Part shown: one piece after another, positions 10,978 through 50,098 of the stretch
Layout: the number at the start of each line of letters is the position of its first letter
How positions within the stretch are numbered: position 1 is the stretch's first letter
Source: a virus
Lineage: Duplodnaviria > Caudoviricetes
DNA: 64,000 bases
Virus record (IMG/VR): IMGVR_UViG_2873737359_000001
Span: 96,001 to 160,000 of that record
Strand: one strand, 5' to 3'
Made by a program: the position numbers and the translations under genes
Notes under the pieces: model-generated
The model's input: only the letters and a program-made list of their open reading frames with translations
What the model was told of the DNA's origin: nothing
The model's database searches: none

Positions 10978-10985
10978 TTTATCAG

Positions 10986-11002: not shown

Positions 11003-11033
11003 TGATATTTTCATTTTTAGAAAGGCTTGGTGT

Positions 11034-11105
11034 GCATCTTTAGTATATGTGGTAATACAATGGTCTCCAAAACCATAGAACAGGGTTCAAGTCCTTGAGG
11101 ATGTG
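11034..11105 (+). tRNA. tRNA-Trp(CCA)
   Basis: GCATCTT/AGGATGT; loop CTCCAAA. Confidence 0.88.
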
Positions 11106-11113
11106 TTTATTAT

Positions 11114-11196
11114 GGGAGAATATTCCGTAGATAGTAGCGGGGCGGTCTGTAAAACCGTTGTCATTGACTCGGGTGGTGCAACTCCATCTTCTCCCA
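11114..11196 (+). tRNA. tRNA-Tyr(GTA)
   Basis: GGGAGAA/TTCTCCC; loop CTGTAAA; atypical T loop TGCAACT. Confidence 0.8.
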
Positions 11197-11333
11197 CTAG
11201 GTTGGCAAATTAAATCAAAATACCATAAAACATCGTAGATATAGTTTTACCATGAGGATGCTTGCGTCAGATTTGGTTTATAAAAGGTTTTGTCTCTGAT
11301 CATGACAGATAATGAGCCTTTGAGTCTACACAT

Positions 11334-11405
11334 AGATATATAGCTTAATGGATAGAGCGCACGGCTACGAACCGTGTAATATAGGTTCGAGTCCTATTAT
11401 ATCTG
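11334..11405 (+). tRNA. tRNA-Arg(ACG)
   Basis: AGATATA/TATATCT; loop CTACGAA. Confidence 0.9.
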
Positions 11406-11440
11406 CTTATCTCCTATTTGGATTGGAGAAATAAAATAAA

Positions 11441-11668
11441 GTGAGGAAATTAATATTGATAAGTATTAATGCAAAAGAAGCTGAATATCTGCGTTCAAAA
11501 GGCAGAGGATATGATGTAAAAACAGCAAATAAAAGTCATAAAAGTAGATCAAAGAAGTATTTTATGACAACAAATTTTAAGTCTGTAGAATTATTGAATA
11601 ATTATAGAAAATCTATAAATCGCACAGATCTTTATATCAAGAAAAATAAGCGAGATTTTCGTTTTTAA
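11441..11668 (+). CDS. Small basic hypothetical protein
   Basis: 75-aa K/R-rich ORF; start uncertain. Confidence 0.6.
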   Translation: MRKLILISINAKEAEYLRSKGRGYDVKTANKSHKSRSKKYFMTTNFKSVELLNNYRKSINRTDLYIKKNKRDFRF

Positions 11669-11690
11669 ATGATATTTACTTACTTGAAAG

Positions 11691-13136: not shown

Positions 13137-13147
13137 GAGAACAAGGA

Positions 13148-13753
13148 ATGGATATTGTTGAATTACTTAAAGGAGACGATGATCTGTATACGGCTATAGT
13201 AAAAGATCATCTTCAGGAACGAAAAATTATTTTAAATGAAGAAGTCAACGACGGGGTTATTGAAAATGTATGTCTGATGATTATGAAATGGAATGAAGAA
13301 GATAAATATATTCCTACCTCAAATCGTAAGCCTATCTTCATTTATATCAATACTGATGGCGGGGATGTATTATCTGGTAATCAGGTACTCGGTACTATTG
13401 CGGCTTCTGAGACCCCAGTTTATACAGTGGGACTTGCAAAGTGTGCCTCTATGGGTTGTTACATTCTCGCTGCCGGACACAAACGTTTTTGTTTTGAAAA
13501 TACGGTAGTACTCTATCATGATGGACAAACTGGATATGTTAGTTCTTCAAATAAAGGAAAAGATATTCAGAAATTTTATGATAATCTTGAAAAGAGAATG
13601 ACTGACTTTATGGTTAAACACACGAACATGACTGCCGAATTTCTTGATGACATAAAGGATAGAGAATATTATATGTTTTCTGAGGAAGCAAAAGAAAAAG
13701 GAATTGTTGATCAGGTTATTGGAATTGATTGTAAATTAGATGATATTATTTAG
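13148..13753 (+). CDS. clpP: ClpP-family protease subunit
   Basis: IYINTDGG, CASMG (catalytic Ser), LYHD, EEAKEKGIVDQV. Confidence 0.88.
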   Translation: MDIVELLKGDDDLYTAIVKDHLQERKIILNEEVNDGVIENVCLMIMKWNEEDKYIPTSNRKPIFIYINTDGGDVLSGNQVLGTIAASETPVYTVGLAKCASMGCYILAAGHKRFCFENTVVLYHDGQTGYVSSSNKGKDIQKFYDNLEKRMTDFMVKHTNMTAEFLDDIKDREYYMFSEEAKEKGIVDQVIGIDCKLDDII

Positions 13754-13842
13754 CGAAAAATTACATATCTTTTTACATATATAATAATATCATCAGCAAA
13801 GCAATATGTCAATAAAAAATAGGAATAAATGGAGATAAAATT

Positions 13843-14061
13843 ATGGAATTAAAAAAAACAATTAAATATGACGGGAAACTTAAAGGACTTCATATGGTAG
13901 AAGGTCAACTTGTAGATTTGAATGGAGAAATCGTAGATATCCTTGAAATTTTCACCAAAGCATATGGCGAGAAACCATTTGATATGTCTACTACTACTAA
14001 AACAGAGGAAATCATTGATCTTGACGATGAAGATACTGATTTTGATCCAGATTTGAAATAA
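13843..14061 (+). CDS. Small acidic protein (YonK-like position and size)
   Basis: 72 aa, immediately upstream of the phosphoesterase as in SPbeta. Confidence 0.5.
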   Translation: MELKKTIKYDGKLKGLHMVEGQLVDLNGEIVDILEIFTKAYGEKPFDMSTTTKTEEIIDLDDEDTDFDPDLK

Positions 14062-14071
14062 GGTACGTCAT

Positions 14072-15259
14072 ATGGACAAAGATACATTTTTAAAAGATCA
14101 ATTAGATCTAATTAAGAGAAAACAAATGGATCCTTCTATTGAATGGCAAGACGTTGCGGATTTTCGTGAAGAATACTCCGGTGAAAAAGAACATCGAGAT
14201 ACTATTCGAAAAGGATCTAAACTTTTGTTAGAATATATTAATGGAGGATGGGATCTTGTTCCATCCTCTTCTATTGATATGGGAAGCTTTTCTGAGGCTA
14301 TGGAAATAAAGAAAGAACGTATTAAGCTTCAGACTGAGAAGCAGGAAATGAATAAGTGGATACGAGAATTGTCTCGTGATGAAATGATTGCAGAAAAAAT
14401 GGTCAATGCAATTACTACCCTCCCATCGCTTACTATTCCGGAACCAATTACTATTGATCCAAGTAAAAACGATTATCTACTTACTATATCAGACGCTCAT
14501 TATGGTGTTGAGTTCTGCATAAAAGATTTCTGGGGATATACAATCAATGAGTATAGTCCTAAAATATTCGAGAGTCGTATGTGGGAGTTATTTTATAAAG
14601 TAGTTGATCAAATTCAAAAAGATGATATCAAATTGTTACATATATTTGAGCTTGGAGACGCTTTAGAAGGTATTCTACGTGCAAATTCACAGCTTATGCA
14701 GCTTAGATATGGAATTATTGACTCTGCATTTTTATATGCTAATTTCTTATCTGAATGGTTAAATGAGTTAAGCAAACATGTAACAATTGAATTTCAAATG
14801 ATAAAAAGATCGAATCATAATCAGCTTAGACTTGTTGGACAGCCTAAGAATGCTTTCCCGGATGAAGATATGAGCAAATCTATGCTTGTATTTATTAAAG
14901 AAAGACTTAAAAATAACCCGAATATTAAAATAATTGAGAATCCAACTGGATTGGCGTATGCTCAATTAGGAATTCATAATATTATTGGAGGTCATTTTGA
15001 AACAAAAGATCTTGGAAAAGAATTGATGGAATATTCAAAAACATATAATGTGCCGCTTGATTATATTGTATCTGGCCATTGGCATTGTTCGTTTTCTGGA
15101 GAAATTGGAATTAATTCAGAGTATTTGTCTGTAAGATCAATTATTGGAGTTAATCCATATAGTATGAAAATTAATAAGACGGCTAACGCTGGAGCTTCAA
15201 TGTTTGTTTTTGATCAAAATGACGGATTAGTGGATGAACATAAATATAAATTACATTAA
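14072..15259 (+). CDS. Calcineurin-like metallophosphoesterase with N-terminal helical region
   Basis: ISDAHYG, LGDALEG, SNHN, GHWH. Confidence 0.85.
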   Translation: MDKDTFLKDQLDLIKRKQMDPSIEWQDVADFREEYSGEKEHRDTIRKGSKLLLEYINGGWDLVPSSSIDMGSFSEAMEIKKERIKLQTEKQEMNKWIRELSRDEMIAEKMVNAITTLPSLTIPEPITIDPSKNDYLLTISDAHYGVEFCIKDFWGYTINEYSPKIFESRMWELFYKVVDQIQKDDIKLLHIFELGDALEGILRANSQLMQLRYGIIDSAFLYANFLSEWLNELSKHVTIEFQMIKRSNHNQLRLVGQPKNAFPDEDMSKSMLVFIKERLKNNPNIKIIENPTGLAYAQLGIHNIIGGHFETKDLGKELMEYSKTYNVPLDYIVSGHWHCSFSGEIGINSEYLSVRSIIGVNPYSMKINKTANAGASMFVFDQNDGLVDEHKYKLH

Positions 15260-15265
15260 AAATAA

Positions 15266-15303
15266 AAAGCACTTACGTATAAATGTAAGTGCTTTATCTT
15301 TTG
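15266..15303. terminator. Bidirectional terminator-like hairpin
   Basis: AAAGCACTTAC/GTAAGTGCTTT flanked by A and T tracts. Confidence 0.65.
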
Positions 15304-15403
15304 TGGTTTGTTCAAATCATTCCATTAATTTAAATTACTTTTAAAGTATAACACAATATGTTTAAAATTGCAATTGTTATTTTACCCTCGCTGGACTTAA
15401 TTT

Positions 15404-15503
15404 TTACTGATGTCGGTGAAACATTTCGCGATGATCATACACGCAAAACGCCACATTAATTAAATTGAACAGCCATGTGCTGCATATAAAAAAATGTATT
15501 CAT
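15404..15503 (-). pseudogene. Small hydrophobic peptide gene frameshifted in a T7 run
   Basis: SD GGGAGGT, ATG at 15503; reads 15 aa as is, 32 aa if T7 becomes T6; promoter TTGAAT-17-TATTAT at 15699-15671. Confidence 0.4.
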
Positions 15504-15785
15504 GTATTATACCTCCCGTTCCGGCTCAATGAGCTTTATGCAGCAGGTTTATGAACTCACGCTTACCGTATGTAAAACGGCGTCCGTAGTAAATTTCAGT
15601 CCAGCTCCACATGAATGTCGGAGTGGCCCGACATTCTGACATCTTTTGGATGTCTCCACCTCAGTTGTATATAATAACATATTGTGTCTATACATTCAAG
15701 TAAAATAATACAAGTAGTATGCTATTACGCTGTTACTTATATTATACATTTCTGGAGGGCGGTCTTGCCCTCCTATTTTCTATCA

Positions 15786-15865
15786 CGACATATGGCGGAA
15801 TTGGCAGACGCGCCAGATTTAGGTTCTGGTGTTTATTCGTGAGAGTTCGAATCTCTCTATGTCGA
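15786..15865 (+). tRNA. tRNA-Leu(TAG)
   Basis: CGACATA/TATGTCG; loop TTTAGGT. Confidence 0.88.
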
Positions 15866-25500: not shown

Positions 25501-25833
25501 ATGAAAACTATTTATGGTCATTTTGATGACAAACAATTTGAGAATTATAAGGTAAGGTTACATAAAGAATTATTTTGGTTACTTTTATATAAAGATCCGA
25601 AAACAAAAGACGAATTTAATAACATTGATTTCGAAAAATATTTTATTAATTTGATGAAACGGATTGACGGATTAAATACACTTCTCTCCTATCCTGTTGA
25701 AATTATATCTATAATGTCAACTCTTCAGGCTGCTTTAAATGAAACACGAGAAGAAAATTTTGATTATCAATCTTACAGAAAATTAGTATTAGATGCACAT
25801 TCGTTAGTAGATAAAATTAATGATAGGAGTTGA
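25501..25833 (+). CDS. Hypothetical protein
   Basis: 110-aa operonic ORF. Confidence 0.65.
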   Translation: MKTIYGHFDDKQFENYKVRLHKELFWLLLYKDPKTKDEFNNIDFEKYFINLMKRIDGLNTLLSYPVEIISIMSTLQAALNETREENFDYQSYRKLVLDAHSLVDKINDRS

Positions 25834-25838
25834 TTTTA

Positions 25839-28567
25839 ATGATTACTGCCGACATGTACAGATCGCATCTTAATTCATATGGCAGTAATTTAGCACAGGT
25901 TAAACAAAGCCAATCTAATATGGTTGTAAATAGTGCCTTTACTGCGGATGCACAATATAAAAGAGTTTATATATTAACAAAAGATGGATGGAAATTCGAG
26001 GATGCAAAGTTTCAAAAGCACGCGAAATATTCTATTCTTAAAGATGCCGTTGATTATTACGTTCAGTTTCGCCCAAAAGTACATTACTCTGTTGGTAGTT
26101 ATCTTTTTATTCCGGACGATACTGCTCACGAAATTAATATTCACGGTAAAGACTTAGAACATCCATTATCGCTTCCAGAAGATCAAATCACTCAATTGTG
26201 GTTTATAGTCGGTCGTGATTATGATCCATCTTTTGTTAGATATAATGTTTTGCAATGCAATTGGAAATTTAAATGGATATACAACAATAAGTTATATACA
26301 TGCTGGGGTGCGAATAGATCGGCCAACAGCTACACAAGCGGTAAATGGACAGATTTTGTATGGATTTTCTGTACATACATGGTCCGCTGTAAAGGGAAAC
26401 CTTGACAGCGCATTCTTTCGGATATGCTGGAATTAGGCTGTACACATAGCCGTCCTAAAGCTTACTAAACTACAACATAATGATGGAATATGCATAAGTG
26501 TGAATGTCGCGAAAGCAGAAAAAATTAGTAAGATGGTATAAGCTGAAACAAAAGCTTTTATATAATAAAAGTGCTAAGTACTACTACAATGGGAAATCAG
26601 CAGGGAATAGTTTAACTAGGCTTGCCCTCATCGACTATCGGTTGAAATACCGTTAGGGAGAAGTCTCCCGAAGTGAAAGACTCCTAAGTGCTTAATTGCA
26701 TATGGTGAATGATATAGTCAGTGCTTACATGAAAGTGTAAGAAAAGTTGTTTATAAATTAATATTGAATATTAAGACCAGACAGCGGGTAGCTCCTGTTT
26801 TGTTATACCTCCTATATAACAATTATGGTCTTTTTATTATACATAAATTTAGGAGGAATTTTTATGTCAAAATTATCAGTACAAAAAATATTTGAAAAGC
26901 ACGGAGACGAAATTATTAATCTTCGGAAAAATGGTATGCAGATGCAAGAAATTGGTGAAAAATTTAATTTGAAAACTCAAACTGTGAGCAGCTTTTTGCG
27001 AAGAAATAATATAAGAGTTCGCGGATTAAGGAATGAAGAAACAGAAAATAAGATAGTTCAATTATATAATGATGGAGTGTCTATGAGAGAAATTGCTTCA
27101 AATTTTCATTTTACACAAGGAACCGTCAGAGATATACTTGTTAATCATGATGTGCATATCAAAACTAATTCTGAATCACATAGGATATATGATATAAACG
27201 AAAATTATTTTAATCAAATAGATACGCCTAAAAAAGCTTATATTTTAGGATTACTATATGCAGACGGTAATAGAAGTAGCAGATCTAACACAATTTCAAT
27301 TCGTCTTCAAGAAAGTGATAAAAACATTTTAGAAAATATTAAAAAAGAATTGAATGCAGAAGTGCCATTACGATTTATTGATTATTCTAATGATTCTAAA
27401 AGACAAAACCAGTTTCTACTAGCAATAAGTAATGAACAAATTGCAAAAGATTTATATAAATACGGCATTGTTCCAAGGAAAGAATTTAAATTAACCTTTC
27501 CTAATTGGTTAGATAATAATCTCCTATCTCACTTTATAAGAGGATATTTAGACGGTGATGGTTTTATTTCAAATAACCCGAAAGAAAAACGAGCCAATAT
27601 TACCGGAACCGAAAATTTGTTACTTGGAATTAAAAATATTTTAGAAGAACAATTAAATATACATTTTAGTATATATTCACCTCATAATAAAGATACTAAT
27701 ACTAGAACGTTAGCTGTAGCTGGAGGGAATCAAGTTAAAAAATTTTTGGACTACCTTTATAAAGATGCTGATTTATATATAGAAAGAAAATACGACAGAT
27801 ATTATAATATGTACTGTGCTTAATATAAACAATCCTTATTTAAAGTAACGAATTAAATAAGTAACATTCAGGAATATTCATCTGCGCTTGACAATTTGAC
27901 ATCAGCGTGGATGCCAGACATTTATTATGCTTATGGTAATAACTTATACGAACTTGGATTAGATGATAATAGAACTGTGATGCATGAACAACGTTTCATG
28001 CTCTCAAATAATATTCTTGATCCTAAAGTATATCAGGTTACGAAAGTAACAGATCTTAATCCTTCTGGAGTAATAAAATACTCTATTAAGCAGGATGAAT
28101 TGGATAATAAACGGGATAATGTAGAATTACAAATATGTGATTATTATACGGACTCCGGTGATCAAAAAACTGAGACTATACAAAAGCCTCAAATGATGAT
28201 TACGGAATCTCAAATCAGGTGGTTAACTCTTAATGATGATGGAGAATTAGAACCTATCTATGATAAATCTAAGCAATGTCTATATCTAGGAAAGAATTCT
28301 TATTTCGAATACAAACTCCCATATCAAGACTTAAAATCCGAATGGAATCTAAGTGTATATGATAGAAAAAACGAATTATCTGACGAAGACAAATCTTATT
28401 ATGAAGGATTAATGAAAATAACAGTTATGGATAATGTAACTATTTCAATTAAGCCGGGAAAGGCTAATAGTCTTATTGGTAAAAGATTTATTCTTTCAGC
28501 GACAGATAATAATGGCGATAACCACTCTTCTATCGTACTGGAGGTGGAAAAATGGTCAGAGACATAA
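25839..28567 (+). CDS. Neck / head-closure-like protein, spliced (exons approx. 25839-26354 and 27872-28567, about 403 aa)
   Basis: Removing the intron gives in-frame ...SYTSGKWTD|EYSSALDNLTSAWMP... Confidence 0.7.
26355..27871 (+). mobile_element. Group I intron (IA-type) with homing endonuclease
   Basis: P ATGCTGGAA 26424, Q AATCAGCAGG 26595, R TCATCGACTA 26628, S GATATAGTC 26711, P3 TCTTTC/GAAAGA, two extra helices between P7 and P3', P9 GAAA loop, terminal G; 5' boundary inferred from reading frame. Confidence 0.9.
26864..27823 (+). CDS. LAGLIDADG homing endonuclease with N-terminal HTH-like repeats
   Basis: AYILGLLYADG and HFIRGYLDGDG; SD AGGAGG before ATG 26864. Confidence 0.9.
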   Translation: MSKLSVQKIFEKHGDEIINLRKNGMQMQEIGEKFNLKTQTVSSFLRRNNIRVRGLRNEETENKIVQLYNDGVSMREIASNFHFTQGTVRDILVNHDVHIKTNSESHRIYDINENYFNQIDTPKKAYILGLLYADGNRSSRSNTISIRLQESDKNILENIKKELNAEVPLRFIDYSNDSKRQNQFLLAISNEQIAKDLYKYGIVPRKEFKLTFPNWLDNNLLSHFIRGYLDGDGFISNNPKEKRANITGTENLLLGIKNILEEQLNIHFSIYSPHNKDTNTRTLAVAGGNQVKKFLDYLYKDADLYIERKYDRYYNMYCA

Positions 28568-33860: not shown

Positions 33861-36800
33861 ATGAGTGATATGAAATTAGGAGAGATTAGTCTTGATCCTG
33901 TTGCTGAAGCAATTGTTAAAGGGGTCAATATGAAAGCAAATTCTAAGGCTAATAAAGAATTTCAAAAAACAATAGATCAAATAAAAGAAGGCACAGACAT
34001 GCCTGTTAGATTTAACCCCAATACTTCCGAATTTGATAAAGCTAAAAAAGAAGCTGAGAAACCAATAAAGACTCCGGTTAAATTAGAGACAGAAAATGTT
34101 GATCTCCCGCTTCTAGGGAAAACTCCTGTAAAATTATCAATTGATAAAGATAGTCGAACTGCTATTAAAAAAACTTTAAAGGATGCAGAAAAAGCATCAA
34201 AAAGTTTAATTGATTCTGCGGCAAGAACTGTAAAAAAAATAGGTTCCGCAAATTATTTAGAAGAACTTACAAAAAATGAACGACAAGCAATTTCTACTGC
34301 AGTGTCTAAAGTAAAACGTAACCATCCTGAAATTTCAGATGATAGGTTAAAAACATTTGAGCAAAATCTTATATTAGATAGACGAGCAAAAAAAACACAT
34401 GAAACATTATCAGAAAATTTCAAGCTTCCAGATTCTTCTTCTAAATCATATGGACAAGAGATGTATGAAGCTGCTATTGCAGCTGCAAAGATTCAGGCTG
34501 CTGTTAAAATCAGAGAAGATCTTCATAACGATGAAAGCTATACACAATTTTTATCAAAAAATGATAGAAGCAAAAGTTATAATGGCAACACTCTTAAGAT
34601 ACCAGGAAAATTTATAGATCAAATACAAACTGGTTTGTACGAACATTTAGGGGTTACAGAATTAGGCAATGCTCTTACTTCTGGAAATAGCTGGACTGGA
34701 ATACAAGATCGTATGGTACGATCAATTGATTCTTTTAGTGCAGGTTTAACAGATGTTATAGAAGCTTCTATTCCAAAGACTTCTTCTGGAGATCGTATCA
34801 CTAAGAAATTTCAGAAAAGAATAGATTCTGCTGTTAAAATGGCTGTTGGTATGTCTGTAGATGATGCCATTAATTATTTAACAGGGAAAAGGGGCATTAA
34901 AGAAAATAAAGAGGCGTTATCTTTATTAGGAAAGAAAAAAAATGGAGAATATGAATATTCTGTTGATGATATACTTGGCATATTATCAGAGAAGGCGCCA
35001 ACAGGTGGATCTGAAAACGGTGGCACTAATTATAAAGGATTTAGTCAAATTTTAGGAGCCTTACAGGTATATAACAGAAACGGAGCGTCTGGATTAAGTG
35101 CAAATCGTATTGAACGATTATCAGAACTTGTTGATGTAATTACCTCTACTTATACAGGCAATGATGGTTTCGTTGATTATGATGCAAAAACCGTAATTAA
35201 GTCAATCGATACAGCATTAGATAAAGTTCAGGACGAAGCCGAAAAGGCGTCAAAAGAATCAAAAGAACAACCTAAAGTAGCGGAAAAACCTAAATCTAAA
35301 AAATCTAATGAGAAGTCCTCTTCTACAACTTCTAAAAAAGAATCTGCAAAGACTGAGACTAAAACGGTTGAAGAAAAAGAACCGGGAAAAATTGAAAAAT
35401 CTAAAGAAGAATTTGTTTCTTCTACTCCAAATAAATCCCATCGTAAAGTAGTAAAACCTCCTAAAATCTTAAAGGGCAATTCTCAAGCCAGAGATGTGAA
35501 TGGTAATTTATTATCTTGGGATGGACAAGATTGGAAAATAAAATCAAATTCAGAATCCGATTCTTTATGGGAAAATATACCAGAGAATCCGTCTCCTGAA
35601 TTTTTAAAAAGATTTGAAAGAGCTAAAAAATTTACCAAAAATCATCCTGAATTATTTGGTCCAGATGCTCTCCCTATAGAATTTGATGAGGAAGCTTTTT
35701 TGAAAGATTTTTTGAAAACATTGAATGATGCTCCCCCTATAAAATTTGATGAGGAAGATTTTGGGAAAACAATGAATGATGGAGTAAGTGTTAAAGTTCC
35801 AGATGCATCCAAAGATATAAAAGATGGAGCAAAGCAAATAAAACAGGCGTCAGATACAATAGAAAAAACTTCCAAAACCGATCAAAAAATATCTGATGAC
35901 AAGAAAGAATCTTCTGATTCTATAAAACCAAAAACTCATTCATCTTCACATTCGAAAAAAGGAAATAATCAACAAGATGACGATCAAGATCAAATAAATA
36001 CTGGAAATGATGTAAAAAAAACAAAAAAAGAATTTACATCACAATATAAAGAAGCCATTTCTGATATTAAAGATCTAGGGAAAGCATATGTTAATCTTCA
36101 AAATGCTATTTTAAATCCAACAGGTAAAACTTATAAAAAATCAAATGGAAAAATAGGATCTTCATATGAAGATTTTATTGATCAGCAATTATCTGATATT
36201 GAAAATAAGGAAAATCGAATTAGGTCATTTAACAAAAATGTTCATAATCAAAATAAGACAAATCCTTCTCAAATTAAGGATCAGAATATTTTTGATAGTT
36301 ATGAGAAAGAATTGCAAGATAGTCAGTTACAGCAAAGTCAATTTGATGATAATCTAGTTAGTCTTATGAGATCTGCATACGAAGTTCGTAATAATGCTCA
36401 AAATGAAATACTTAAAACGATTGGCAGTCCTACACGAAAAGGAGAAATTAATTTAGAAAAATTTGCAAAGCAGCAAGAACGCTTTGCTAAAAGTGATTAT
36501 GTGTACAATTTGCTTAGTGATAAAGTAAGCAAACGTAAAGGAAATGCATATCAAGAATCTGCCATATCTGATATTGCGGAATCTTCAAAAACAGATAGAG
36601 AGTCTATTTTACAAACGAATTTTGGTACGTTGTCTCAACAAATCAATGATTATGTATCATCTATTGAAAGAGCTGGACGCGCAAGCGAACAATTCAAATC
36701 AGATTTTGGAAAAATACAATCTGATTTGAATAAAAATGATCCTTCTCAATTTAAAGATACTGAATCAGGTATGAAAGAATATCTTGACTTTATGACAGAT

Positions 36801-39800
36801 ATTCGCAGTCGTTTTAACAGCAATAAAGATTTTTATGAAAATGGCATCGGAAAATCTACTTTAGATTATGAAGCTATCAAAAATAAATTAATTAAAGCAG
36901 AAAACTATAATACTAAAACAAATGAGTATAAATCAAAAGTTTTTGGTTTTCAAGAACAATGGGATGGTATTATAGATAGTTACAGTTCCGGAGATATAGA
37001 GAAAATGAAAGAAGCGGAACATGCCGCCACTTCTCTTATATCCACAATGAACGACTTTTATAAAGAATCATCTAAAAGTGATAAATATAAAAAGACAACG
37101 TCGAAAGGTACTTTAGTAGAAGACACTGTAGGTAAGGTTCAAGATATTAATGATGCAAAACAATCATTAAAACAATTTACCGATGAAATGAAATTAACTA
37201 ATAAGGTGTCAGAAACCATTGATACATCAACAGGTAAGATCACACAAAAATTCAAAGATGATTATTCTGGAAATATAATTACTATCACAAGTAATATTGA
37301 CGAACTTAACAATGCTCTTAGAACAACTCAAAAAATTCAATCATCCGGTTCAGGTGGTTCAGGCGGCTCTCTTCTGGGAGGATTAAAAAATCTCGTATCC
37401 GGCAACTTTAAATCAATTGTTGGTGAAATAGGAAGTAGCGTAGCTAATGTTCAAATTCTTGGCCAAGCTTTCCAGCAAATGAAAGATGGATTTAATACAT
37501 TCCTTGATTTCAATAAAGGATTAACTAATATCAGTTATACCATGGATATGAGCAAAGAACAGCTCTCATCTCTCGGATCATCTGCTGTTGATATGGCCAA
37601 AGATCTTTCTATGTCCTTGGATAATACCATGGATATCTATCAGATCTATGCAAATATGAATACTACACCTAAGGAAATCCAGGAAACAGCGAAGCCTACT
37701 GCTATTCTGAGTAACTTAAGTGGTGTAGATGCTTCTACCGCCGCCGATCAGGTACAGGGTATTCTTCAGCAGTTCCATATGCTTGAAGATGGCTCTACTA
37801 CTGCTGCCGATGCTTCCATGCACGTAGTTGATGTATTGGATAAGATTTCCGGAAATATCGGTATGGATTATGCTAAGGGAATCAAGGTTATTTCTGATGC
37901 GGTACAGGCTTCCGGTCAGGTAGCATTTGATGCTGGAATGAGCTACGAGCAGTTAGCTGCTGTATCTGCTAAAGTAGCTGAAAGAACTCGTGAAGATGGA
38001 TCTTCTATTGGTAATGCAATGAAGACTATCATAACGAGAATCAGTAAAGTTGGATCTATGCCAGAATATGCTGCAGATGTAAGTAATGAAGATCTTTCCC
38101 AGGCTTCAGAGTCTTTACATAAAGTTGGTGTAGAAGTCTATAACACAGATGGATCATTCCGTGATCTTGATACAATCCTTTCAGAACTTAATTCTAAATG
38201 GGACGGATTGACAGACGCTCAAAAAGCAAATATTTCATACAATGTTGCAGCCACGAGGCAAACTTCAAAATTCAAGAATATACTTGAAGCTTGGACAGAT
38301 TCTATGAATTTGGCAAACGAGGCCACTACAACCAGTGGTAATGCCGAAGCCAATCAGGAAAAATATATGGAATCTTTCTCCGGAAAGATCCAGGCAATAA
38401 AAACTCAGATGGATGAGTTTTGGTTAAACTTCTATAATTCAGACCAGGTATCTGGAGCTTTAGATTTTGTACAAGGTTTAACCGAAGGATTTACAGGGCT
38501 TGAAGAAGCCATTGGTCCAATTCCTACTCTAATCACGGCTGTATTCTCAGCATTGACCGTAAAAAATGCAGCAACAAAAGGATTAGACTTTTTAGTAGGG
38601 AAAGATGGACAAGCAAGTGGACTTGCAAATGCCGTGGGTTGACCCAAATTCGGGGTTACAGTTATTATTTCCGATTAATAATGAGCCTATCTACATAAAG
38701 ATCGTGAGATCAATGTGTGGAGACGAGCGGCAATAAATAACTAGAGGATTAAAACGTTGAAACCTGCTATTCTATAATATAGTGAATCGGGCGAAAGCCT
38801 GCAGGTAACGCACGTGCCAACCTGGTTAACGTCTAGTAATATGTGAAACATTAGTAACAATTGCGGAAGCAATGATGAGGGAAGCATATGAATAATCAGG
38901 AAGTGTAGAGAGCGCACCCTTCCTCGGAGTATATACAAAATCCATATATGTATATGCTTTTAATGAATGTGCCTATAGTAATGATGGTGAAATCCATCCA
39001 GTACTCTTCTACTGTTATTTTAAATGAAGAAAAATATTTTTAGGAAGTGCCCCTATAAAAGAGGCACTGTTATTAAAGGTTTTATCCTTTAATCCTCGGG
39101 CAAAAAAAATGGTCCCCGACCGTCTCACTTGCCGCCCGATGCAACGCTTGCAAAGTCACAATTAAAATTAGCCGAGATCTCATTTATGCTAACTTTAATA
39201 TAGAAACTTAAAGCTTCTGGATTATGTTTGAGTATCATCCAGATAGCTGCAAGAATCAATATTGAAATTATAGCTAATATAATTATTGACCCTACAAGCT
39301 TAATTCGTTTTGAATTATTGTCCATATTTCACCTCCTGTCTGCAGTGTTTATGGCACTGCCATAGGAGACAAATTGACTCTAACCAAAACGTCAGAATCA
39401 TGATGACTTCTGATAATTTACCACCTACACTTTTCTGAAGGTATTATGTAAGAAATATATAGTGCACTTATATATTCTACACATGGTAAATTATACCAAT
39501 TATATTCGAAATGTATAGTCAGAACGTTTGATCTGGTTAATATAAAAGTGCATCACAAATAGAGCAGGACGATTGATCCTGCTCTATTCTATTTTTCTCC
39601 AATATCCTCCAAAGGAGATTTCACATGAAAAAGTTATATAAATCTAATCTAAAATTTAATCTTAACATACTATGTAAGATAATTAAGTTTGAACTGAAAA
39701 TAATTACAAAGCATAAACGACTCGCAGAAAAGTGGTTTGAAAAGATCACAACACTAGAATGTGAGTCTATATTTGAGAAAATGGACGAGCGGAAGAAATA

Positions 39801-42800
39801 TCTATAATTTGCGCCACTTCTCTTTGTCTATTACTTCTTCCCGATTCTTCTATTTTCCTCTTCTACCTGAAAGGACTAAATACCCATGAACAAATTTCAA
39901 CGAATTTTACAACATTATGGACAAATCAAAAATTCTACTACTGGACCGTATACAAAACCTTACGAGTTCAGAAATATGACTGATTACGAATGGTACAAAA
40001 AATGTTGTTCTGATATATCACAAAACTATGGGATACTGCTCAACCAAAATCAATCATATTTAAGCTATTGGTTTCATAGGAAAAAGGCAGATGTAAAATT
40101 GTTATTGTCTATTGTTGTTTCCTCCATTTAGAAAGGTGGCGATCCATTATGCAGACAAACCACAAGGTTCTTTCTACTGTTATAGATATTACACAGTTAC
40201 TTTGCAAAAATTCTTGTACATATGATGAAGCGTATAAAATATTAAATATGGTTACTGCCGAATTTAAACAGCAGCAAGAAAATTTAGAATACGCAACATA
40301 CGATGACTATTTTGCAGGTACAAAAACTGATGATGTAAGTAATAAAGTCATTGCACCATTAAATCATGCGGGTGGTTATTGATCTTACTTACTTCCTGGT
40401 TTCCAACGATATCCGCACTTCTGACAAAGATTATGCTTTTTGCTAGATCCCCAAAATCCTGTTAAAAGTGAATATCCGGATTCTTCCGTTGTCACTGACG
40501 TTGATCCGCACTTTGGACAGCGAACGGTTTTGGACGGATCTGGAATATCGGCAGTGTTGAATTCGAAGTATTGGAAGTTGTGGTCGATACAGGTTGTAAT
40601 GAATTTGTAGGCAAGATGAGCTGTATTATTTTGTGCATACCAATTAAAACGTTCTCGAATAAGCCGAGTTATTTTAGTAGTAACAGATAGATATTTTTGC
40701 TGTCCTTCAGGGCAATTAACATTGTCAAAATTTTTAGGGTTATTAAAGCGTTGAAAATTTTCTTTATAGAATCCTTTTTGAGCTTCGTTCGATAATGAAT
40801 TATATAACTCTTTAAAATGTGTTAAATCGTATTCTACTCCATCGACCAAACAAATATTTTCTTTATGAATATTGCTCAAAGGGAAACCACAGTGTATACA
40901 AGCTGGAGCTTTATCAGAGACATTACCGCCACATTCAGGACATTTAATTAACATACCTTTATCCCTCCATTTTCTTTTAATTTTATCATACTATAGTCAT
41001 TAAGTAAAATCGGAAATCTAAAAAAAGCGATAAATTCAAAAGATACGGATACGGTGAAAAGTGTTCTTAGCGGAATGGATCTTGATACTGCTGGTAAATG
41101 GTTTGGACGTTTAAATCAGGAAAATGGAAAAACTATAATTTCTGAAGATATTTTTTCAGATATATTTTCACAATTATTTGGTGAATTAGGCGAAGACACT
41201 ATCAAAAAAGCCATTGCTAAAGGCACTGCTTCAAAAGGTTTCAAAGGTGCACTCTCTGCTGGTATTAGCGGTTTTGCTGGTGGATTAGCTGGTATTGGAG
41301 AAAGTATTGGTACTGTAGGTACAGGATTAGTATCATTTCTGGGTTCTATCTGGCCTTTATTAGCAGTTGGTGGAGGAATTTTTGCAGGTATTAAAGGATA
41401 CCAGGCATTAAACGATAAATTCACTCTTACTAAAGGAATGGCGGACAAACATTATTCTCAGTCCACACAGGAATATGCAAATAACCAGTCCGAACTGGAA
41501 TCCTTGCAGTCTCAGAGAGATACCAACCAAGAGCGTATTTACGAACTCCGGGCCAAAGAAAATCAGTCTCCTGACGAAAAAGCAGAATTGAGTCAACTTC
41601 AGGAAGAAAATAATCTTCTTGATTCTCAGGTAGCTATAAAAGAAAAGTCTGTGGACGTATCTAAGCTAAAGGCAGCCAATGATGCCAAAACGAAACTTGA
41701 GAAAAAAGGATACCAGAAGAACTATAAAAAGGAAGCTTACGATAATCAAGATAAAACTTCAATCAATGATTTAGATGAAGCTTCTGAAATGATTGATTAT
41801 TTAAATCAGCTTAAATCTGAGTACAAAGATCGTGTTCAGAAAATTGCGGATGAAGGTAGAGAACCAAGTTGGATTGAACAGAAAGGTTTGGATAGCACAA
41901 AGAAAAAGATTGACAGTTTGGAATCAGATGTTGCTGATAAGGTAACAGAAATCTCTGACACCGCTAAAAGCATGAAGAACGATGATGGATCTCTTATTGA
42001 TGAGAAATTCAAAGATACTGTTGCTTCTGCTGATGCTGTTGTACAGAAATATCTGAACTCTACAGACTCTACCACAGCCACTTCCGATAAGATGAATAAC
42101 ATCTTTGCACTCTCTCAATTCTCAGATCTGAAGGATAAACTCATTGCCGCAGGTAAATCCGGTGGTACAGATGCTATCCAGAAAATGATTGATGACACAG
42201 ACGGTCTTAAAGATGCAATGAATAATGCCGGACTCACTGCGGATGATCTCAAGGATAGTATTATGTCTATAGCAGATCCTGACGCGAAGAATCTGGAAGG
42301 CATCAAGGAGAATCTTGAGGACATATTCGGTAAGGATGGTCTTGGACAGTCTGATTTCTTCAAAGGTAAAACGGATGAAGAGCTTGAGAACTTCTGGGAT
42401 TATCTCCAGGACAACAACTATAATCCTAAGCAGATGAACTGGAATGAGGAAACCACTAAGAAAAACTTCGAGGCAGCACAGGAAGCTAAGAAGAAAACTC
42501 CAGAGGAATCTGCCACATTCGCTTCTAAATTCAAGAATGCAGCAGAAGATACTGCTACTGACATTGATACTGTAACAGATAACTTCCAATCTGACATGAA
42601 GAATATCCAGTCTGCTATGGAGTCCGTAACAAACGGTACATTCCAGAATTCTGATATGGCAGATCTGATCCAGCAGTTCCCGGAATTAAGTAATGCCAGT
42701 GGTGATTTGAAGGATAATCTTCAGGATCTTGCCATGAATAAAGGGGCTGAGGCCATTGGTAAGATCAGGGATTCTGTAAAGGATGTTACGGACCCGAAGC

Positions 42801-45800
42801 AGTTAGCACAGGCGGATAAATATGTTCAGAGTATCATGGATACGATGGACATGAGCGATTTTGATGTAAATGAGGCAGACGTTAAAGACATTGCTACAAA
42901 AAACATCAAAAAAAATGCAGATAAGTGGGTTAATAGAGATAACGCATCAAAAAAAGTATCTGAGTTAATGGAAAAATATTCTGGCAACGAAGATGCTATG
43001 AAGGCCATTGTTCAACTTTCTATGGATCCTTCTATGGCTGATGCCAGTATAGAAGAATGGGAATCTAAGATTGAAGATCAAGAAATTCAGATAAAGATTA
43101 ATGCTGATACCAAAGAATTAGATAACCTTTCTAAATCAATGACCCGTCTTCAGACAGACGCTTCTAATACTCAGACAGATATGAGTAATAAGTCTGCTTT
43201 CAACCAGAAAATAAATAAAGATGATTACGATGCTTTAATTAAAAATGGCGATGCTCAAATTAAGAACTATGACGAGCAAATCGCACATTATAAAAATTTA
43301 CAGAAAATACTAAAAGAAAACAATATTGATGCAGAGAGCACTGAGCAATGGAAACAATGGCAGGATAATATTGATGCAGCACAGCAGTCTATAGAGAATA
43401 TGAAGGCTTCTCAGGCTGAATGGGGCGATGCGATTAAGAATCTTCCTATTACAGATATAACAAATCTGTCAAGTGCTATCACTACTGCTATGAGCGAAAT
43501 GCAGAGTGATACCGGATTAACCACAGATAGTGTAAAAAATCTGGCTACACAGTTTAGTGATCTCGGTGATATTAACATTGATAGCTTATATACTAGAACT
43601 GCAAAAGGTTTACAGCTTAATACCGATCGTCTCCAGGATTATATGGAGCAACAGAATGATTTTGTCAATTCTGATTTTGAGAACAAAGTTAAGGAGCAAA
43701 AGCAGATTGTTGAGGATGCTTTTAAAGCATATCAGAATGGGGATCAATCACTCGCAAATTATACTGCAGAGCAGAATGCTCTCGATGAATTATTAAATCG
43801 TAGAAATCAATATTTCGCACGGTATCAAGAGGCTCAGGAGCAATTTACTGATTTCCAGAAGATGATCAATGCCGAAAACGCAGCTAATGCTGGCGACGAA
43901 TATACCACAGCTAAATCAAAACTCGATGAATTAAAAGAGTTATATGACAACAATCTTATTGGAACTGAAAAGTTTAAAAAAGGTGCTGCTTATTTCTCAC
44001 AAAACGGATTTGAAGATCCAGAAAACTTCATTGAAAATTATAATCATCTCAAAAAGTATTACACCGATGATTCTTCCGGTCCACAGAAATTCTTAGAGGA
44101 TTTAAATAAGAAAGGTCTCGCTACATATGAGACTCTTGCAAATGGTCAAAAGCAATGGGCTTATTCATTTAATGATGTCAAAGACGCTGCTGATCAGATG
44201 GGAATGAGATATGAATCATTCCAGTCTATATTAGGAAGACTTTCTGATTATGGTTTTGTGAATAATCTTGTTACTTCTACTCAGGATGGAGAACAACAAA
44301 TTGACGAGCTGACAGATGACCTTATTACAGAGAAAAATAAGCTGTCAAAACTGAAAGCAAATGGAGCCACAGATCAGGCTATTCAGGATCAGGAAAATGT
44401 TGTTGATCAACTTGAATCTAAAATTAGTGGTGTAAATCAGGCAGTAACAGATTATGCTAATGGTGAAACAGACAGAAAAGTTCAGGATTTAAAAGAAGCA
44501 AAGCAGATTATCAAGGATTCAAAAGAAGCCTATGATGAGGCAATGAAATCTGGCGATACGGATCTCGCTCAGAAACTTCGTAAAAATATCCAGGATACTG
44601 CTAAAGATAATAACATAGAGTTGACTCCGGAACTAAATATTGATGAGAAAGCTCTTGATAAGCAAATTGACAACTTACAAAGTGAAGCTCGCGAAAAGAG
44701 TGTACAGAAATATAAGGATATCCAGGATCAGCTCCATAATGGACAAACAGAATGGACAGATTCTGAAGATTTCAATGCAGCGGATGCTATTACCAAATTA
44801 GAACAGGCTCAATCAGAAAACGCAGAAGGATTTAATAATCTTGTATCTAATATGAAGAAATATAATCTTTCTGACTTGGAATCTATGATTTTTGATAATG
44901 GTGCATATGAATCTGAAGATCAAGGTCTTCGCGATATGGAAGATCAGATTCAGGGCTTTGCTGAATCTATAGGACTTACTACCGATCAAGCTAATATGCT
45001 CGTTCCTATTCTTGAGGCAATGGGTACTTTAGATATATCTCCTAAAGTTGATAATTCAGAGCTTGAAAAGACCGTGACAGATACTCAGACTGCAGAGCAG
45101 ACTCTTGAAGAAACAACAGGAAAACAATATAATTTTGATTTTAACACAACAGACCTGGATACTATTCAGAAACAGGTTGATCAAGTTAAAAAGGATATCG
45201 AGGACACTTATCTTAAGCGAGATGAGAACGGCAATGTCATTAGAGACGAAAACGGTATCCCTACTTATGATTATAGTGCTCCTGGTGCAAAAGAAACAGC
45301 TCAGATTTATGATGCTTCTATTAAACAACAGCAACAGGCAGAATATCAAACCTCAGCTTTAGGCCAATCAACATCTTCTGATGAAGTAGTAAAAGCCGCC
45401 CAAGATTATATGACAGCTAAGAATGCAATGGATGTGGAAACACAGAAATATAATCTTGGTATGGAGAACAAGTTACGAGAAGCAACGGATAATGCTACCA
45501 ATGCTATGAATGCATATGCTGAAGTTGCAGATAAAAATGGCAATCCATTAGAAACTGACTTAAAAAATATTGATCCACAAAAACTTGAAGATCAATTGTT
45601 AGGAGTAACTGATAAGGATCTTAAAGTAAAAGTCGAAGCAGATACATCCGATGCAGAAAATGATATTCAAAGTCTTGAAAATCTCGAAGGAAGTTCTATT
45701 ACTATCAATGCAGACGTTTCTACAAATGGTGGTGTTGAAGAATTACAAGATTCTCTTGCTTCTATTCCTCAAGGAGTATCTACTACTGTGACATGTGATG

Positions 45801-48800
45801 TAGAAGGCGAGTCTGATGTAGATAATTTGGAGTCTTCTATGGAGTCTATCCCGGATAATACTCCTGTTACAATCGATTGTCACGTTGAAAATCAAGATCA
45901 ACTTGATCAGATTAACCAAAAGGCAGACGAACTTAATGCCAATGGAAAACAAATAAAAATCAACGCTACTGTTGGAGAAGTAAAAACTGATGGAGCAACT
46001 TCTAATACGCCTATAAATGTAAAAGGCAATGTCACAGAAGTTTCAGGAAACCCCTCTGGCACTGTAGATATAAAAGGCAACGTCACTAAAATCTCAGGAA
46101 ACCCTTCAGGTACAGTCGACGTCAAGGGTAATGTTACATCTGTTACAGGTAATCCATCAGGAACAGTAAATGTCAAGGGAAACATCACAGGTATAACAAA
46201 CGAAGATGCAGTAAAAGGTAAGGCTAATTATACAGTAGGACATTCACCAAAGAAAGTTCCTGATGCAAGCGGAAAAGCTAATTTTGGCCTTGGAAAACAT
46301 CCCGAAAAAGCCCCTGATATTTGGGGTACAGCTCATTATACTGGGGATTTCCCAACATCAGCTCCCACCCTTTCTGGTACTGTAGTATATCACGCACAAA
46401 TTCTAGGAGCACCTTCTGGCGCAAAATCAGTTGCAACAGGTACAATGCTCTCTCCTGCTCATGCTTCAGGTACGGCTTATAATGTTTTAAATATGAAGCG
46501 ACTCTCTCCTGCTCATGCCGGAGGAAATGTTGCTATCAAACATAATGAACAAGCTCTTGTAAATGAAGTAGGTACAGAATCTATTGTTCGTAATGGTGTA
46601 TGGTCACTTCTTCCAGGCGGAGCACATCTTGAGAATTTAAAACAGGGAGACATTGTATTCTCTGCTTCTCAGACAAAAGATCTTCTTGAACATGGACGTA
46701 CAGCTGGACATGCACGTGCTTATGCAGAAGGCACTGCTTCTCTCACACATGCTTATGCTCGTTCTTCTGCTGCTAATGGCGGTGGAGCTTTTGGCGGAGT
46801 TAGAACAAGAACTACCACTTCAAACCAGTCATCTAGTTCTAATAATTCAAATAATAATAATGCACTTCAAACAATCGCAGATAATACAGATTCAATTGCG
46901 GGAAGTTCACAGCAAACAGCAGACAACACTTCGAATTGGGAAGATCCATGGAAGAATGCAGTAGACTGGTTCGAACGGTATAGCACCAGAATAGATAATA
47001 AGTTGGATCTAAATAGTGCTATTTCTGATAATTATCAAGGAAATAAATCTAATAAGAAAAATCCATTTAGTATTGCTACAAAAAATAGCACTTTAGATTA
47101 TTCTATTGATACAATCAAAAAAGAAATTCCAAATTATCAAAAACAACGGGATTATTATGCTTGGCAAGCTGAGGCTTATGGAGATAAAATTGGTCTTTCT
47201 CAGGATCTACGTAAATTAGTTCAGGAAGGTAAAATCCAGGATATCGAAATTTACGATGAAGATACAAAATCTAAAATTGAAGCATATCAGACATGGTACG
47301 ATAAAGTTCATAGTGTTGAATCTTCTATTGAGGATCTAAAATCTAAAGAAGCGGATCTTTGGAACCAAAAATTCAGTAATATTACTGACCGTTATGATGC
47401 ATTAAAAGGTATTTACTCAGGAAAGAATGATATTCTTAGTGCAACAAATGATTATCGAAAAGAAACAGGACAATCTGAATCTTATAAATCGGTATACGCA
47501 AATAATATTAGAGCGCAAAGAACAAATCAAATCAAGCAGAATGCTATTACTGCTGAGGAAATCAAAAAATATCAGGCAGAGTTAAGAAGTCTTGGAAAAG
47601 AATATGGCACTCAGTCTACTATTTATAAGGAAGCGCAGTCTACTCTTCTTGATCTAAATAAGGAATATCAAGAAGGGAAAACAGCTGTAAGAAATTTCAC
47701 AAACCAGCTTAATGAGTTAAAATTAAAAGATCTTCAAAATGTAATTGATAGATATGATAACGCTTCTGATAAACAATCTTCTTATCGCGACTGGAAAGAT
47801 GCTACACATTTCAAAGGAACATCCGGTGTTACACAGAATGATTTACTAGAGGGCATTAAAACTAATGACAAACTTATTGATGCCATATCTGCTAGAAGGG
47901 ATGAGGTTCAGCGTCAAATGCTTGGACTTTCCACGAGTTCTGATGATTATCGAACATTGGCAGACGAGCTTGCACAATTAGACGAAAGGACTGCAAACAT
48001 TGCTAAAAACAATGCAGAATTACGTCAGCAAGCAACTCAGTTACGTACAGACCAATATGATAAAGCAATAGACAAACTTGAGCGTATCACAACTGACTGT
48101 GAAAATATTCAGAGTATGATGGATTCAGACACATTTTTATCTGATGACGGATCTCTTACTACAAATGGTCTTACTAATATTGCTTTAGAAAATCAGTCTA
48201 TACAGACTAATCAGAAAAAAATTGCCACATTAAAGCAGGAATTAGCAGAAGTTCAACAAATGTATGACAATCATTGGATGACCGAGGAACAATTCTTATC
48301 TCAGAGCCAACAGATTATTTCTGATATTAATTCTGCGGCGAAAGATATTTCTTCAAGCCAACAAAATTTAATCGATACATATATTAATCAGATTACAAAA
48401 GAGAACGAATATTTACAAGACAATATCTCTAAACGTAAAGAAGCTCTTGAGGCCAAAAAGGATTATTATGATTATGATAAGACTATTAAGAATAAGACAA
48501 AAGATATCAATGTAATCAAAGCACAGATTGCTGCTCTTGAGGGAACAACAAACGCCGTTGCGAAGGCAAAATTAGAGCAACTTAAAGCAGACCTTGTAGA
48601 TAAGCAAGAAGATCTCGAAGATACCAAGTATGACCATAAGATTGATATGGAATCTAAAGGCTATGATAATCTTGCAGATCAGGCAGATAAGGCTTTGGAT
48701 TCTACTACACAGGCAGTTAAAACCAATGCCGATATGCAAAAATCTGTTATCGATAATATGCTTAAGGAAGTACAAGGCAATTACAAGGATGTATATGATA

Positions 48801-50098
48801 ATATTACAAACATTGTAAAAGATTCTGGTGCTCAAATATCTAAAGAATTTGATAGCATTCTTAAAAATATTGGAAACGGCAAAGGTAATTTTACTGTTAC
48901 TGTTACAAGTAAAGCTAAATCTTCTGTAGGGAAAACAAAAATTTCTAATGCTCCTGGAGTTACTGGACGAGGAAAGACTTCCGGAGATAAGAAAGTAAGA
49001 CGAACTGCTAAAGACGGAAGCTCTGCAAATAACGCTGCCGATGAAAATGGTACAGATCGACAGGCAACACAAGCTGTTACTGCTACTCCGAAATCTATAT
49101 CTATAGGTGTTGGAAATAGCGCGACTGTGAAAATTGGATTTAAGCCGACAAATGCTACCTATAAAGATTTTACATACGAAGTTTCAAAAAAAGGAATTGT
49201 TTCAATTTCTAAAGGTAAATCTTCTATTACTGTAAAAGGCACGGCGGTTGGCAGTGTAAAAATTACTATCAAAGGTCATGGCGCAGGATGTAAATCTACG
49301 ACTGTTTCTGTAAAAGTCTTAAAAGATGGAGCCAAACATACAACAATTGCAAAAAACGTAGCAAAATCTATGAGAACATCATTAGACACCAATGATGTTA
49401 CTAAGATTCTAAATGCTACAAGCGGTAAAAAAACGGTAAAAGAAGTTGAATCATACGTAAAACAATATGTTATTCAAAATAAAAATAATAATGTAACAAA
49501 AACTGCATTATCTAAGTGGTTTAAAGCTCTTCCAGCTTTTAAAGGTGATGTTTCAAAAGTTACTGGTATCGTTACAAAGCATTTAGCCCAAAAAGGCAAA
49601 AAAGCTACCGTTGCTGATATTCAAAAGGCTGCATCTATTCTTGGATATAAGGATTATAAAAATGTGGCCAAATGGAGTACTACTCAGAAAAACGCACTCG
49701 TATCTAAATTAAAAGGATATGGATTTGCTAATGGTGGAATCATTCGTAATCTGATTCCTGCTAATATGAGTACATTATTTGGTGATGCTATTATGAAAAA
49801 TGGCGATACAGGTCTTATATCTGCTCGACAGGGAGAAACTGTATTAACAGAGAAGTTCACAAATATGCTCGAACCAACTGTGACTGCTATGAACGCATTT
49901 ACAGATATGTACCAGAAAATGAGCGCTCCTAATGTAAGTAGTGTTCCAACTCAGCAACAAAATATATTCCAGCCAGAGTATAATATTAATATTACTGGAA
50001 TGGATCTAAGCAAGGCTACTGAACTGAAAAAGGTTATTCGAGGGGAACTCAATAATCATGATAAAGCACTTGCAAAAGAATTTAAAAAGTTCAGTTAA
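33861..50098 (+). CDS. Tape measure protein, spliced (exons 33861-38639 and 40997-50098; 4626 aa)
   Basis: TP901-type tape-measure core in exon 1 ([24 protein letters not shown]); exon 2 frame opens right after TAG 40994-40996; join reads ...ANAVG|SLSKIGNL... Confidence 0.85.
39125..39325 (-). CDS. Intron-borne small membrane protein (66 aa)
   Basis: SD AGGAGGTG; TM segment [23 protein letters not shown]. Confidence 0.75.
   Translation of the reverse strand: MDNNSKRIKLVGSIIILAIISILILAAIWMILKHNPEALSFYIKVSINEISANFNCDFASVASGGK
39558..39597 (+). terminator. Terminator-like hairpin inside the tape-measure intron
   Basis: AATAGAGCAGGA/TCCTGCTCTATT then CTATTTTT. Confidence 0.55.
39625..39807 (+). 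CDS. Intron-borne hypothetical protein (60 aa)
   Basis: SD AAAGGAG. Confidence 0.5.
   Translation: MKKLYKSNLKFNLNILCKIIKFELKIITKHKRLAEKWFEKITTLECESIFEKMDERKKYL
39886..40131 (+). CDS. Intron-borne hypothetical protein (81 aa)
   Basis: SD GAAAGGA. Confidence 0.55.
   Translation: MNKFQRILQHYGQIKNSTTGPYTKPYEFRNMTDYEWYKKCCSDISQNYGILLNQNQSYLSYWFHRKKADVKLLLSIVVSSI
40149..40382 (+). CDS. Intron-borne hypothetical protein (77 aa)
   Basis: SD AAAGGTG; converges on the Zn-ribbon gene. Confidence 0.6.
   Translation: MQTNHKVLSTVIDITQLLCKNSCTYDEAYKILNMVTAEFKQQQENLEYATYDDYFAGTKTDDVSNKVIAPLNHAGGY
40385..40954 (-). CDS. Intron-borne Zn-ribbon protein (189 aa)
   Basis: N-terminal CPECG...CIHCG and C-terminal CPKCGS...CQKCG; SD GGAGG. 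Confidence 0.85.
46012..46190 (+). repeat. 51-bp (17-aa) tandem repeats in the tape measure
   Basis: (V/I)x(V/I)KGNVTxxxGNPSGT, about 3.5 copies. Confidence 0.8.

Follow-up and report, generated by a model that had tools for sequence, protein, structure and literature searches.

The 64,000-nucleotide (nt) stretch analyzed here (the window; positions 96,001 to 160,000 of IMG/VR record IMGVR_UViG_2873737359_000001) comes from contig C1 of a bacterial genome of 3.7 Mb, and the region of interest lies in the late operon of a prophage. Two large open reading frames (ORFs) of this operon are quite probably the exons of one tape-measure gene that is interrupted by a group I intron at positions 38640–40996. 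This reading, already put forward in a preliminary description of the window, is supported by a conserved and covarying core, invariant bases at the splice sites, maintained P9.0 and P10 pairings, and homologs in which the gene is uninterrupted. The proposed parts of the gene and intron are as follows.

33861–38639, plus strand: proposed exon 1, 1593 codons, whose final 6 nt (GUGGGU) would form helix P1.
38640–40996, plus strand: proposed intron, 2357 nt, with an in-frame TGA at its start and an in-frame TAG at its end, the G of which would be the omega-G.
40997–50098, plus strand: proposed exon 2, 3033 codons plus stop, whose first 21 nt (UCAUUA to AAUCGGAAAU) can pair with the guide.
38640–39015, plus strand: putative ribozyme core, comprising the P1a hairpin, the P10 guide, the internal guide sequence (IGS), P2/P2a, P3, P4, P5/5a/5b, P6 with its extensions, P7, P8, P9 and P9.1.
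38667–38690, plus strand: guide segment, made up of the P10 extension (38667–38676), P10 (38679–38684) and the IGS of P1 (38685–38690).
38910–38916, plus strand: 5′ strand of P7, G-(bulged A)-GCGCA, pairing with 38968–38973; presumed guanosine-binding site.
38974–38980, plus strand: 5′ strand of P9.0, UAUAGUA, with its partner at 40989–40995, a span of more than 2 kb.
40989–40996, plus strand: 3′ strand of P9.0, UACUAUA, followed by the putative omega-G, G40996.

ORF1 (33861–38642, plus strand) encodes 1593 amino acids (aa) with the tape-measure core domain PF10145 at aa 1242–1458. The second frame (ORF2) is open from 40997 to 50098 on the same strand, has GTG at 41054 as its first start codon, and encodes a product with a Big_2 domain. 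The 2357 nt between ORF1 and ORF2 contain minus-strand ORFs for a 66-aa product and a 189-aa zinc-ribbon protein and three small plus-strand ORFs. When joined, the exons remain in frame (1593 + 3033 = 4626 aa) and read AVG-SLSK at the junction (hyphens mark splice junctions in the motifs given here), and the predicted ligated sequence at 38639 and 40997 is GCCGTGGGT followed directly by TCATTAAGT. The TGA that opens the intron, the in-frame TAG that closes it, the in-frame junction and the length of 4626 aa, all given in the preliminary description, were confirmed by reading the sequence.

A structure model was written from the window sequence with an alignment of related sequences as a guide; it includes the P7/P3 pseudoknot and a P6 with three extension helices, and it starts with P1a, a hairpin at the first intron base. 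In P1, the IGS GCCUAU (38685–38690) lies opposite the GUGGGU at the end of exon 1 (38634–38639), giving a U.G pair at U38639. In P10, UAAUGA (38679–38684) lies opposite UCAUUA (40997–41002), and the helix is extended by ten perfect pairs between AUUUCCGAUU (38667–38676) and AAUCGGAAAU (41008–41017). Between the 45 nt of L1 and the 30 nt that open exon 2, ~36 × 21 / 4^10 = 7e-4 perfect 10-mer complements would be expected by chance. These pairings, together with P9.0 and G40996, could be read directly in the sequence at the positions first given for them, and P2 with its GUGA loop, P3, P5, the CCUGGUUA/UAAUCAGG helix, P8 and P9 are also present and kept in relatives. Many of the model helices were recovered in a minimum free energy fold.

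To compare the core across relatives, we took 46 further IMG/VR loci and counted base pairs on 37 distinct sequences; the controls were 3′ partners slid by 1–3 columns, plus 500 shuffles. Standard pairs filled 96.8% of 3225 pair cells, compared to 28–47% with slid partners, and changes on both sides were found at 22 pairs, compared to 2–4 in the slid controls, while the observed values were reached in 0 of the 500 shuffles. The slid-partner control preserves the relatedness of the sequences, which makes it the relevant comparison. The helices occur in the order P3-P4-P5-P6-P7-P3′-P8-P7′ with the P3/P7 pseudoknot, each was 92–100% paired, and P4, P5, P7 and P8 showed both-side changes. The P7 pair C38913:G38971 was found as C:G, A:U and U:A, and two pairs swapped in each of the CAUU/GAUG and AUUGC/GCAAU helices. 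For P4, covariation favored ACGUUG (38754–38759) with CG(C)ACGU (38809–38815) over the CGUU/AACG register proposed earlier, as G38756:C38813 changed to A:U and U38758.G38810 to C:G. P1, in the form GU(G/A)GGU with GCCUAU, was paired at all six positions in 37/37 sequences; its U.G pair was invariant, and its variation was a single one-sided change from G.U to A-U.

Several unpaired or junction elements of the core were also strongly conserved. The pair G38910-C38973, the bulged A38911 and the pair G38912-C38972 were invariant in all 37 sequences, and the P7 G-C pair beside the bulged A would be the guanosine-binding site. The AA of J4/5 faces the AA of J5/4 in 36 sequences (GA in the remaining one), J3/4 is A-rich, J6/7 is AGA, and P6 (G/A-C-C with G, G, U) follows P4 directly with no gap. 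J8/7 is UUUAAUGAA in 36 sequences and one base off in one, and GNRA loops are found on P5b and P6c. J7/3 is a 4-nt CCCU in 37/37 sequences, and thus P7.1/P7.2 of subgroup IA, the usual phage type, are absent. Two contigs with ORF2 N-termini only 42–76% identical to that of the window had a nearly identical noncoding stretch after the ORF1 stop, and this stretch was clearly alignable in all other relatives.

At the distant 3′ splice site, the motif G-UCAUUA(3–6 nt)AAAUCGG(A/G)AA was present in 42/45 loci, and the other three loci end before the motif position. The base preceding exon 2 was always G in these 42 loci, and the codon there was AUG, UAG, UUG or GUG. P9.0 was found in three complementary versions, one per clade (UAUAGUA/UACUAUA, ACUGU/ACAGU and AUGAG/CUCAU). 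At its outer end, the P10 extension has A38667:U41017 in the clade of the window and the swapped pair U:A in the others. A G.U pair occurs in one clade, and P10 plus its extension (16–18 bp) was maintained across loci. The first ~21 nt of exon 2 were almost invariant, while the first 300 aa encoded there were 31–52% identical in most loci. That the nucleotides at the start of exon 2 are kept despite the divergence of the protein points to a constraint at the RNA level. Across the family, the 3′ splice site lies 1.2–3.2 kb beyond the core. A minus-strand promoter-like site (TTTACT, 17 nt, TG-TAAAAT, where the hyphen is not a junction) was seen at 40980–41008, upstream of the zinc-ribbon ORF; it overlaps the 3′ strand of P9.0, the omega-G and the first codons of exon 2, so that one stretch of ~30 bp would be splice site, coding sequence and antisense promoter at once.

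Based on these features, splicing may proceed as follows. The first ~380 nt of the intron would fold into the ribozyme, whose IGS (GCCUAU) would pair with the last six bases of exon 1 and so position the wobble U38639.G38685 where exon 1 meets the intron. This 5′ splice site would be attacked by an external guanosine docked in P7, at the G-C pair beside the bulged A38911. P9.0 (7 bp), P10 (6 bp) and the 10-bp extension just 5′ of the IGS would draw in the 3′ splice site from 2 kb further on. G40996 would then take the G site, and the exons would be joined to give AVG-SLSK within a 4626-aa tape-measure protein, with interchangeable, mostly opposite-strand passenger genes in the stretch between P9.1 and the 3′ strand of P9.0. 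We infer that the core is catalytic, that transcription reads through the cargo in cis, and that tail assembly depends on splicing, as had been suggested for the last point from the outset.

When longer relatives of the exon-1 C-terminus were sought, uninterrupted proteins of 3,595–4,981 aa with 46–69% identity were found: P0125 (3595 aa), P0124 (4420 aa), P0150 (4338 aa), P0132 (4743 aa) and P0131 (4981 aa). BLASTP comparison with the joined exons showed an exon-1-like region (~1085–1600) and then an exon-2-like region (~3580–4226) in the same order, and two of the alignments span the junction. Alignment to uninterrupted homologs, one of the checks named in the preliminary description, placed both halves in one protein and in order. 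At a neighboring tape-measure site of a related phage (locus L074, 15445–16615), a 1171-nt insert of different sequence has a layout matching that of the window: the exon ends in UUCGGU, the IGS is GCCGAA, a hairpin stands at the first intron base, the P10 guide AAAUAU lies opposite AUAUUU, and the intron ends in UUG with an antisense zinc-ribbon ORF before its 3′ end. Its sister L075 is intron-less and encodes a continuous 4420-aa protein, with whose LIKDFSLFTYNISDANKG the predicted spliced L074 peptide LLKNFG-IFKAIQNDATG aligns across the site. The uninterrupted homologs and the L074/L075 alleles indicate that the ancestral state was one gene. The L074 core was not alignable to that of the window and was left out of the covariation counts. 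The zinc-ribbon gene accompanies both of these mutually unalignable cores.

The same interruption was found throughout the close family. ORF2 homologs in a 5.8-billion-protein collection were ~2,950–3,050 aa long, with identities from 96% to ~43%, and none of the ~120 matches listed had the fused length, which agrees with the earlier expectation that standard annotation would call two genes. Three contigs whose ORF2 is 96%, 81% and 45% identical to that of the window share its layout, namely a PF10145 ORF, 340–500 nt of noncoding sequence, variable genes, a minus-strand zinc-ribbon ORF and ORF2. The interruption was present in 42/42 related loci that reach exon 2, with the halves 1.6–3.6 kb apart and a variable, mostly antisense cargo. 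Both ORFs were intact in >40 loci, some of them on contigs of phage size. A BLASTN search of 50,697 phage records with a 4.4-kb query returned no match, a scan of genome contigs gave one distant locus only, and a family-level genome search gave only distant tape-measure relatives with 22–27% identity.

Many relatives carry an extra insertion of ~1.6–1.7 kb in exon 1 at a site corresponding to window position ~38260 (aa ~1466; L026:4257–5942 and L042–L069), which combines a noncoding leader of 343 nt with an ORF of 382 aa that weakly matches PHROGs (D5-like regulator, HNH), and L045 has an insertion near aa 1390. Since the window is free of inserts at both of these sites, insertions there are polymorphic, and they are probably mobile introns.

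The cargo of the window intron comprises the following features.

39125–39325, minus strand: 66-aa hydrophobic ORF; a minus-strand terminator-like hairpin at ~39041–39067 adjoins the core.
39558–39588, plus strand: terminator-like hairpin with a 12-bp stem plus a T-run, also found in L024.
39625–40382, plus strand: three small ORFs (60, 81 and 77 aa) with no family match, possibly coding.
40385–40954, minus strand: double zinc-ribbon protein of 189 aa (phrog_2546), directly upstream of the 3′ splice site, a position kept in relatives.

No homing endonuclease of the LAGLIDADG, GIY-YIG, HNH or His-Cys box type was found in Pfam and PHROGs searches, in which the cargo ORFs matched zinc-ribbon families or nothing. 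The cargo of L024 includes a sense-strand DUF3800 protein (6210–7022), and L025 has a 230-aa antisense ORF instead. Judging from these comparisons, the intron interior is an exchange site for passenger genes.

Several observations weigh against a single spliced gene. The covariation expected among homologs was found in P4, P5, P7 and P8 but not in P3 or P1, which never vary, and the AUAUG/CAUAU helix is likewise invariant, so that the support for these three comes from conservation. The sequences form about three clades, which implies few independent events, and chance correlations between columns were many: in an all-against-all scan of the columns for covariation, changes that define the clades drowned out other signals, and the evidence for pairing rests on the slid-partner controls and not on this free scan. 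The z-score of the minimum free energy was only −1.78. The way from the core to the 3′ splice site contains a strong sense-strand terminator-like hairpin (39558–39588) and a cargo that is mostly antisense or convergent, with minus-strand terminator-like hairpins abutting the core. Among the 42 loci of the close family, none had an intron-less allele, and most relatives have an AUG exactly at the junction, which would permit independent translation of exon 2. Finally, the group I model RF00028, with which the region and the core were checked as the preliminary description had proposed, failed to match a 3.6-kb stretch at E ≤ 1 and the 411-nt core even at E ≤ 10.

RF00028 also gave no match on the L026 and L074 inserts, and neither group I nor group II introns were recognized when the region, the core alone and the related inserts were scanned with Rfam. 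The same prophage has a second, more ordinary group I intron at window positions ~26346–27886, in which RF00028 gave a sub-threshold match (26549–26741, 22 bits, E = 0.003). It contains a sense-strand ORF (26825–27823, 332 aa) with LAGLIDADG_3 and helix-turn-helix domains and is flanked by ORFs at 25830–26405 and 27896–28567, neither of which matches any family. This second intron counts in favor of an intron in the tape-measure gene, as do the polymorphic exon-1 insertions of relatives and the group I introns known from other prophage tape-measure genes. The score of only 22 bits on a LAGLIDADG intron of the same prophage suggests that RF00028 has a poor reach for these phage introns. The two introns share the genome and the late/structural gene region, whereas the tape-measure intron has neither the sense-strand LAGLIDADG_3 ORF nor the weak RF00028 match. 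Upstream of both, ten tRNA genes are clustered at window positions 9214–15865 (Rfam gathering-threshold matches).

The RF00028 miss, the sense hairpin, the antisense cargo and the AUG at the junctions keep two other explanations alive. In the first, ORF1 and ORF2 would give two separate proteins: the ribozyme would be an inactive relic or serve another role, such as 3′ end processing or stabilization of the ORF1 message, ORF2 would be translated alone, and the tape measure would consist of two polypeptides. The AUG precisely at the start of exon 2 in most relatives is consistent with this, as are the calling of all homologs as separate ~3,000-aa ORFs among the matches listed, the fixation of the interruption in the family and the sense-strand terminator-like hairpin within the intron. 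However, the AUG is not conserved, since other clades have UAG, UUG or GUG at the junction, and exon 2 of the window has no start codon at the junction. Upstream of ORF2 no Shine-Dalgarno sequence is visible; by eye, none was seen in the window just upstream of the GTG at 41054 or of the ATG that follows at 41075. In addition, the omega-G, P9.0, P10 and the catalytic-core motifs are kept by selection, and an inert relic would lose them, while the uninterrupted homologs are single proteins. We consider two separate proteins unlikely.

In the second, the exon-1 transcript would end inside the intron, exon 2 would lie on another transcript, and the 23–25 bp of P9.0, P10 and the extension would assemble the two RNAs for trans-splicing. 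Such an arrangement would fit the terminator-like hairpin at 39558–39588, which is conserved in L024, the unusual length of the guide helices and the transcription of the cargo against the gene. Yet no convincing sense promoter was found between the hairpin and exon 2, where promoter-like sites numbered 17 compared to 12.2 ± 3.6 in shuffles, and in L024 the interval from the hairpin to exon 2 is filled by the antisense zinc-ribbon gene. Terminators are, moreover, commonly read through in late phage transcription. Trans-splicing is therefore quite unlikely on present evidence, and splicing in cis of one tape-measure gene remains our preferred reading. A broader proposal is that the intron both switches gene expression and serves as a platform for its variable passenger genes, most of which are antisense and point toward the core: the output of the tape-measure gene would depend on read-through past the cargo or on the assembly of two transcripts via the 23–25 bp guide helices, which would be natural bacterial group I trans-splicing, and the conserved antisense zinc-ribbon gene would be part of this control or of intron spread. 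This proposal is speculative, and we rate it as rather unlikely.

An insertion of DNA that broke the gene in a defective prophage, either like an insertion sequence (IS) or a miniature inverted-repeat transposable element (MITE) with 18–21 bp inverted ends or as a moron island, is very improbable: 38667–38684 and 40997–41017 do form an inverted repeat and the cargo content differs among relatives, but the right arm belongs to the translated exon and is retained by every relative, neither a transposase nor a target duplication is present, both ORFs are intact in >40 loci, and the structured core covaries. Among other candidates, an intein was rejected because of the in-frame stops at both ends, a group II intron because of the lack of an Rfam match and a reverse transcriptase ORF, and an IS or MITE because one "terminal repeat" is conserved coding sequence.

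If the two ORFs are indeed exons of one gene, gene callers split the tape-measure protein into two "genes" across a metagenomic phage family, which would affect annotation and the inference of tail length. RF00028 would miss a well-conserved bacterial group I lineage, for which our alignment could seed a new model. The layout would be a natural example of long-range 3′ splice-site selection, and it offers a direct way to test how splicing, transcription read-through and late gene expression are linked.

Among known systems, the intron of the phage T4 nrdD gene (sunY) resembles the window intron in plan: its ribozyme core lies at the 5′ end, a coding insert follows, and a remote 3′ splice site is chosen via P9.0 and P10. 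It carries one sense-strand homing endonuclease ORF in a gene of nucleotide metabolism, whereas the window intron has a variable cassette and a P10 extended to 16–18 bp.

Closer in terms of the host gene are the group I introns TMP-IVS1, -IVS2 and -IVS3, which occupy three sites in the tape-measure genes of Bacillus cereus-group prophages (Tourasse and Kolsto 2008, PMC2504315); the tape-measure protein (TMP) intron of Lactobacillus phage JCL1032 is listed in the same study. Because such introns were described in 2008, the word "cryptic" in the preliminary description overstated the novelty of the window intron. The B. cereus-group introns (PMC2504315) resemble it in being group I introns of a temperate-phage tape-measure gene with several insertion sites per gene, in having intron-plus and intron-less alleles, and in that many lack a homing endonuclease. 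They are, however, compact introns of subgroup IA1 or IA2 with a homing endonuclease or its remnant. The window intron, in contrast, lacks P7.1/P7.2, is missed by RF00028, is 1.6–3.6 kb long in its family, holds several mostly antisense passenger genes, and interrupts the gene in 42/42 scorable close relatives.

Introns in capsid and tail genes of Cluster J mycobacteriophages were shown to splice efficiently in late expression (PMC3706429). They too reside in virion structural genes, and the LittleE capsid intron has a bottom-strand ORF, but this ORF encodes a LAGLIDADG endonuclease (PMC3706429), whereas the conserved antisense ORF of the window intron encodes a zinc-ribbon protein. Group I introns in tape-measure genes are thus already known, and what seems unusual here is the combination of a 5′ core, long-range guide helices and an exchangeable, antisense multi-gene cargo that includes a conserved zinc-ribbon gene in place of any homing endonuclease.

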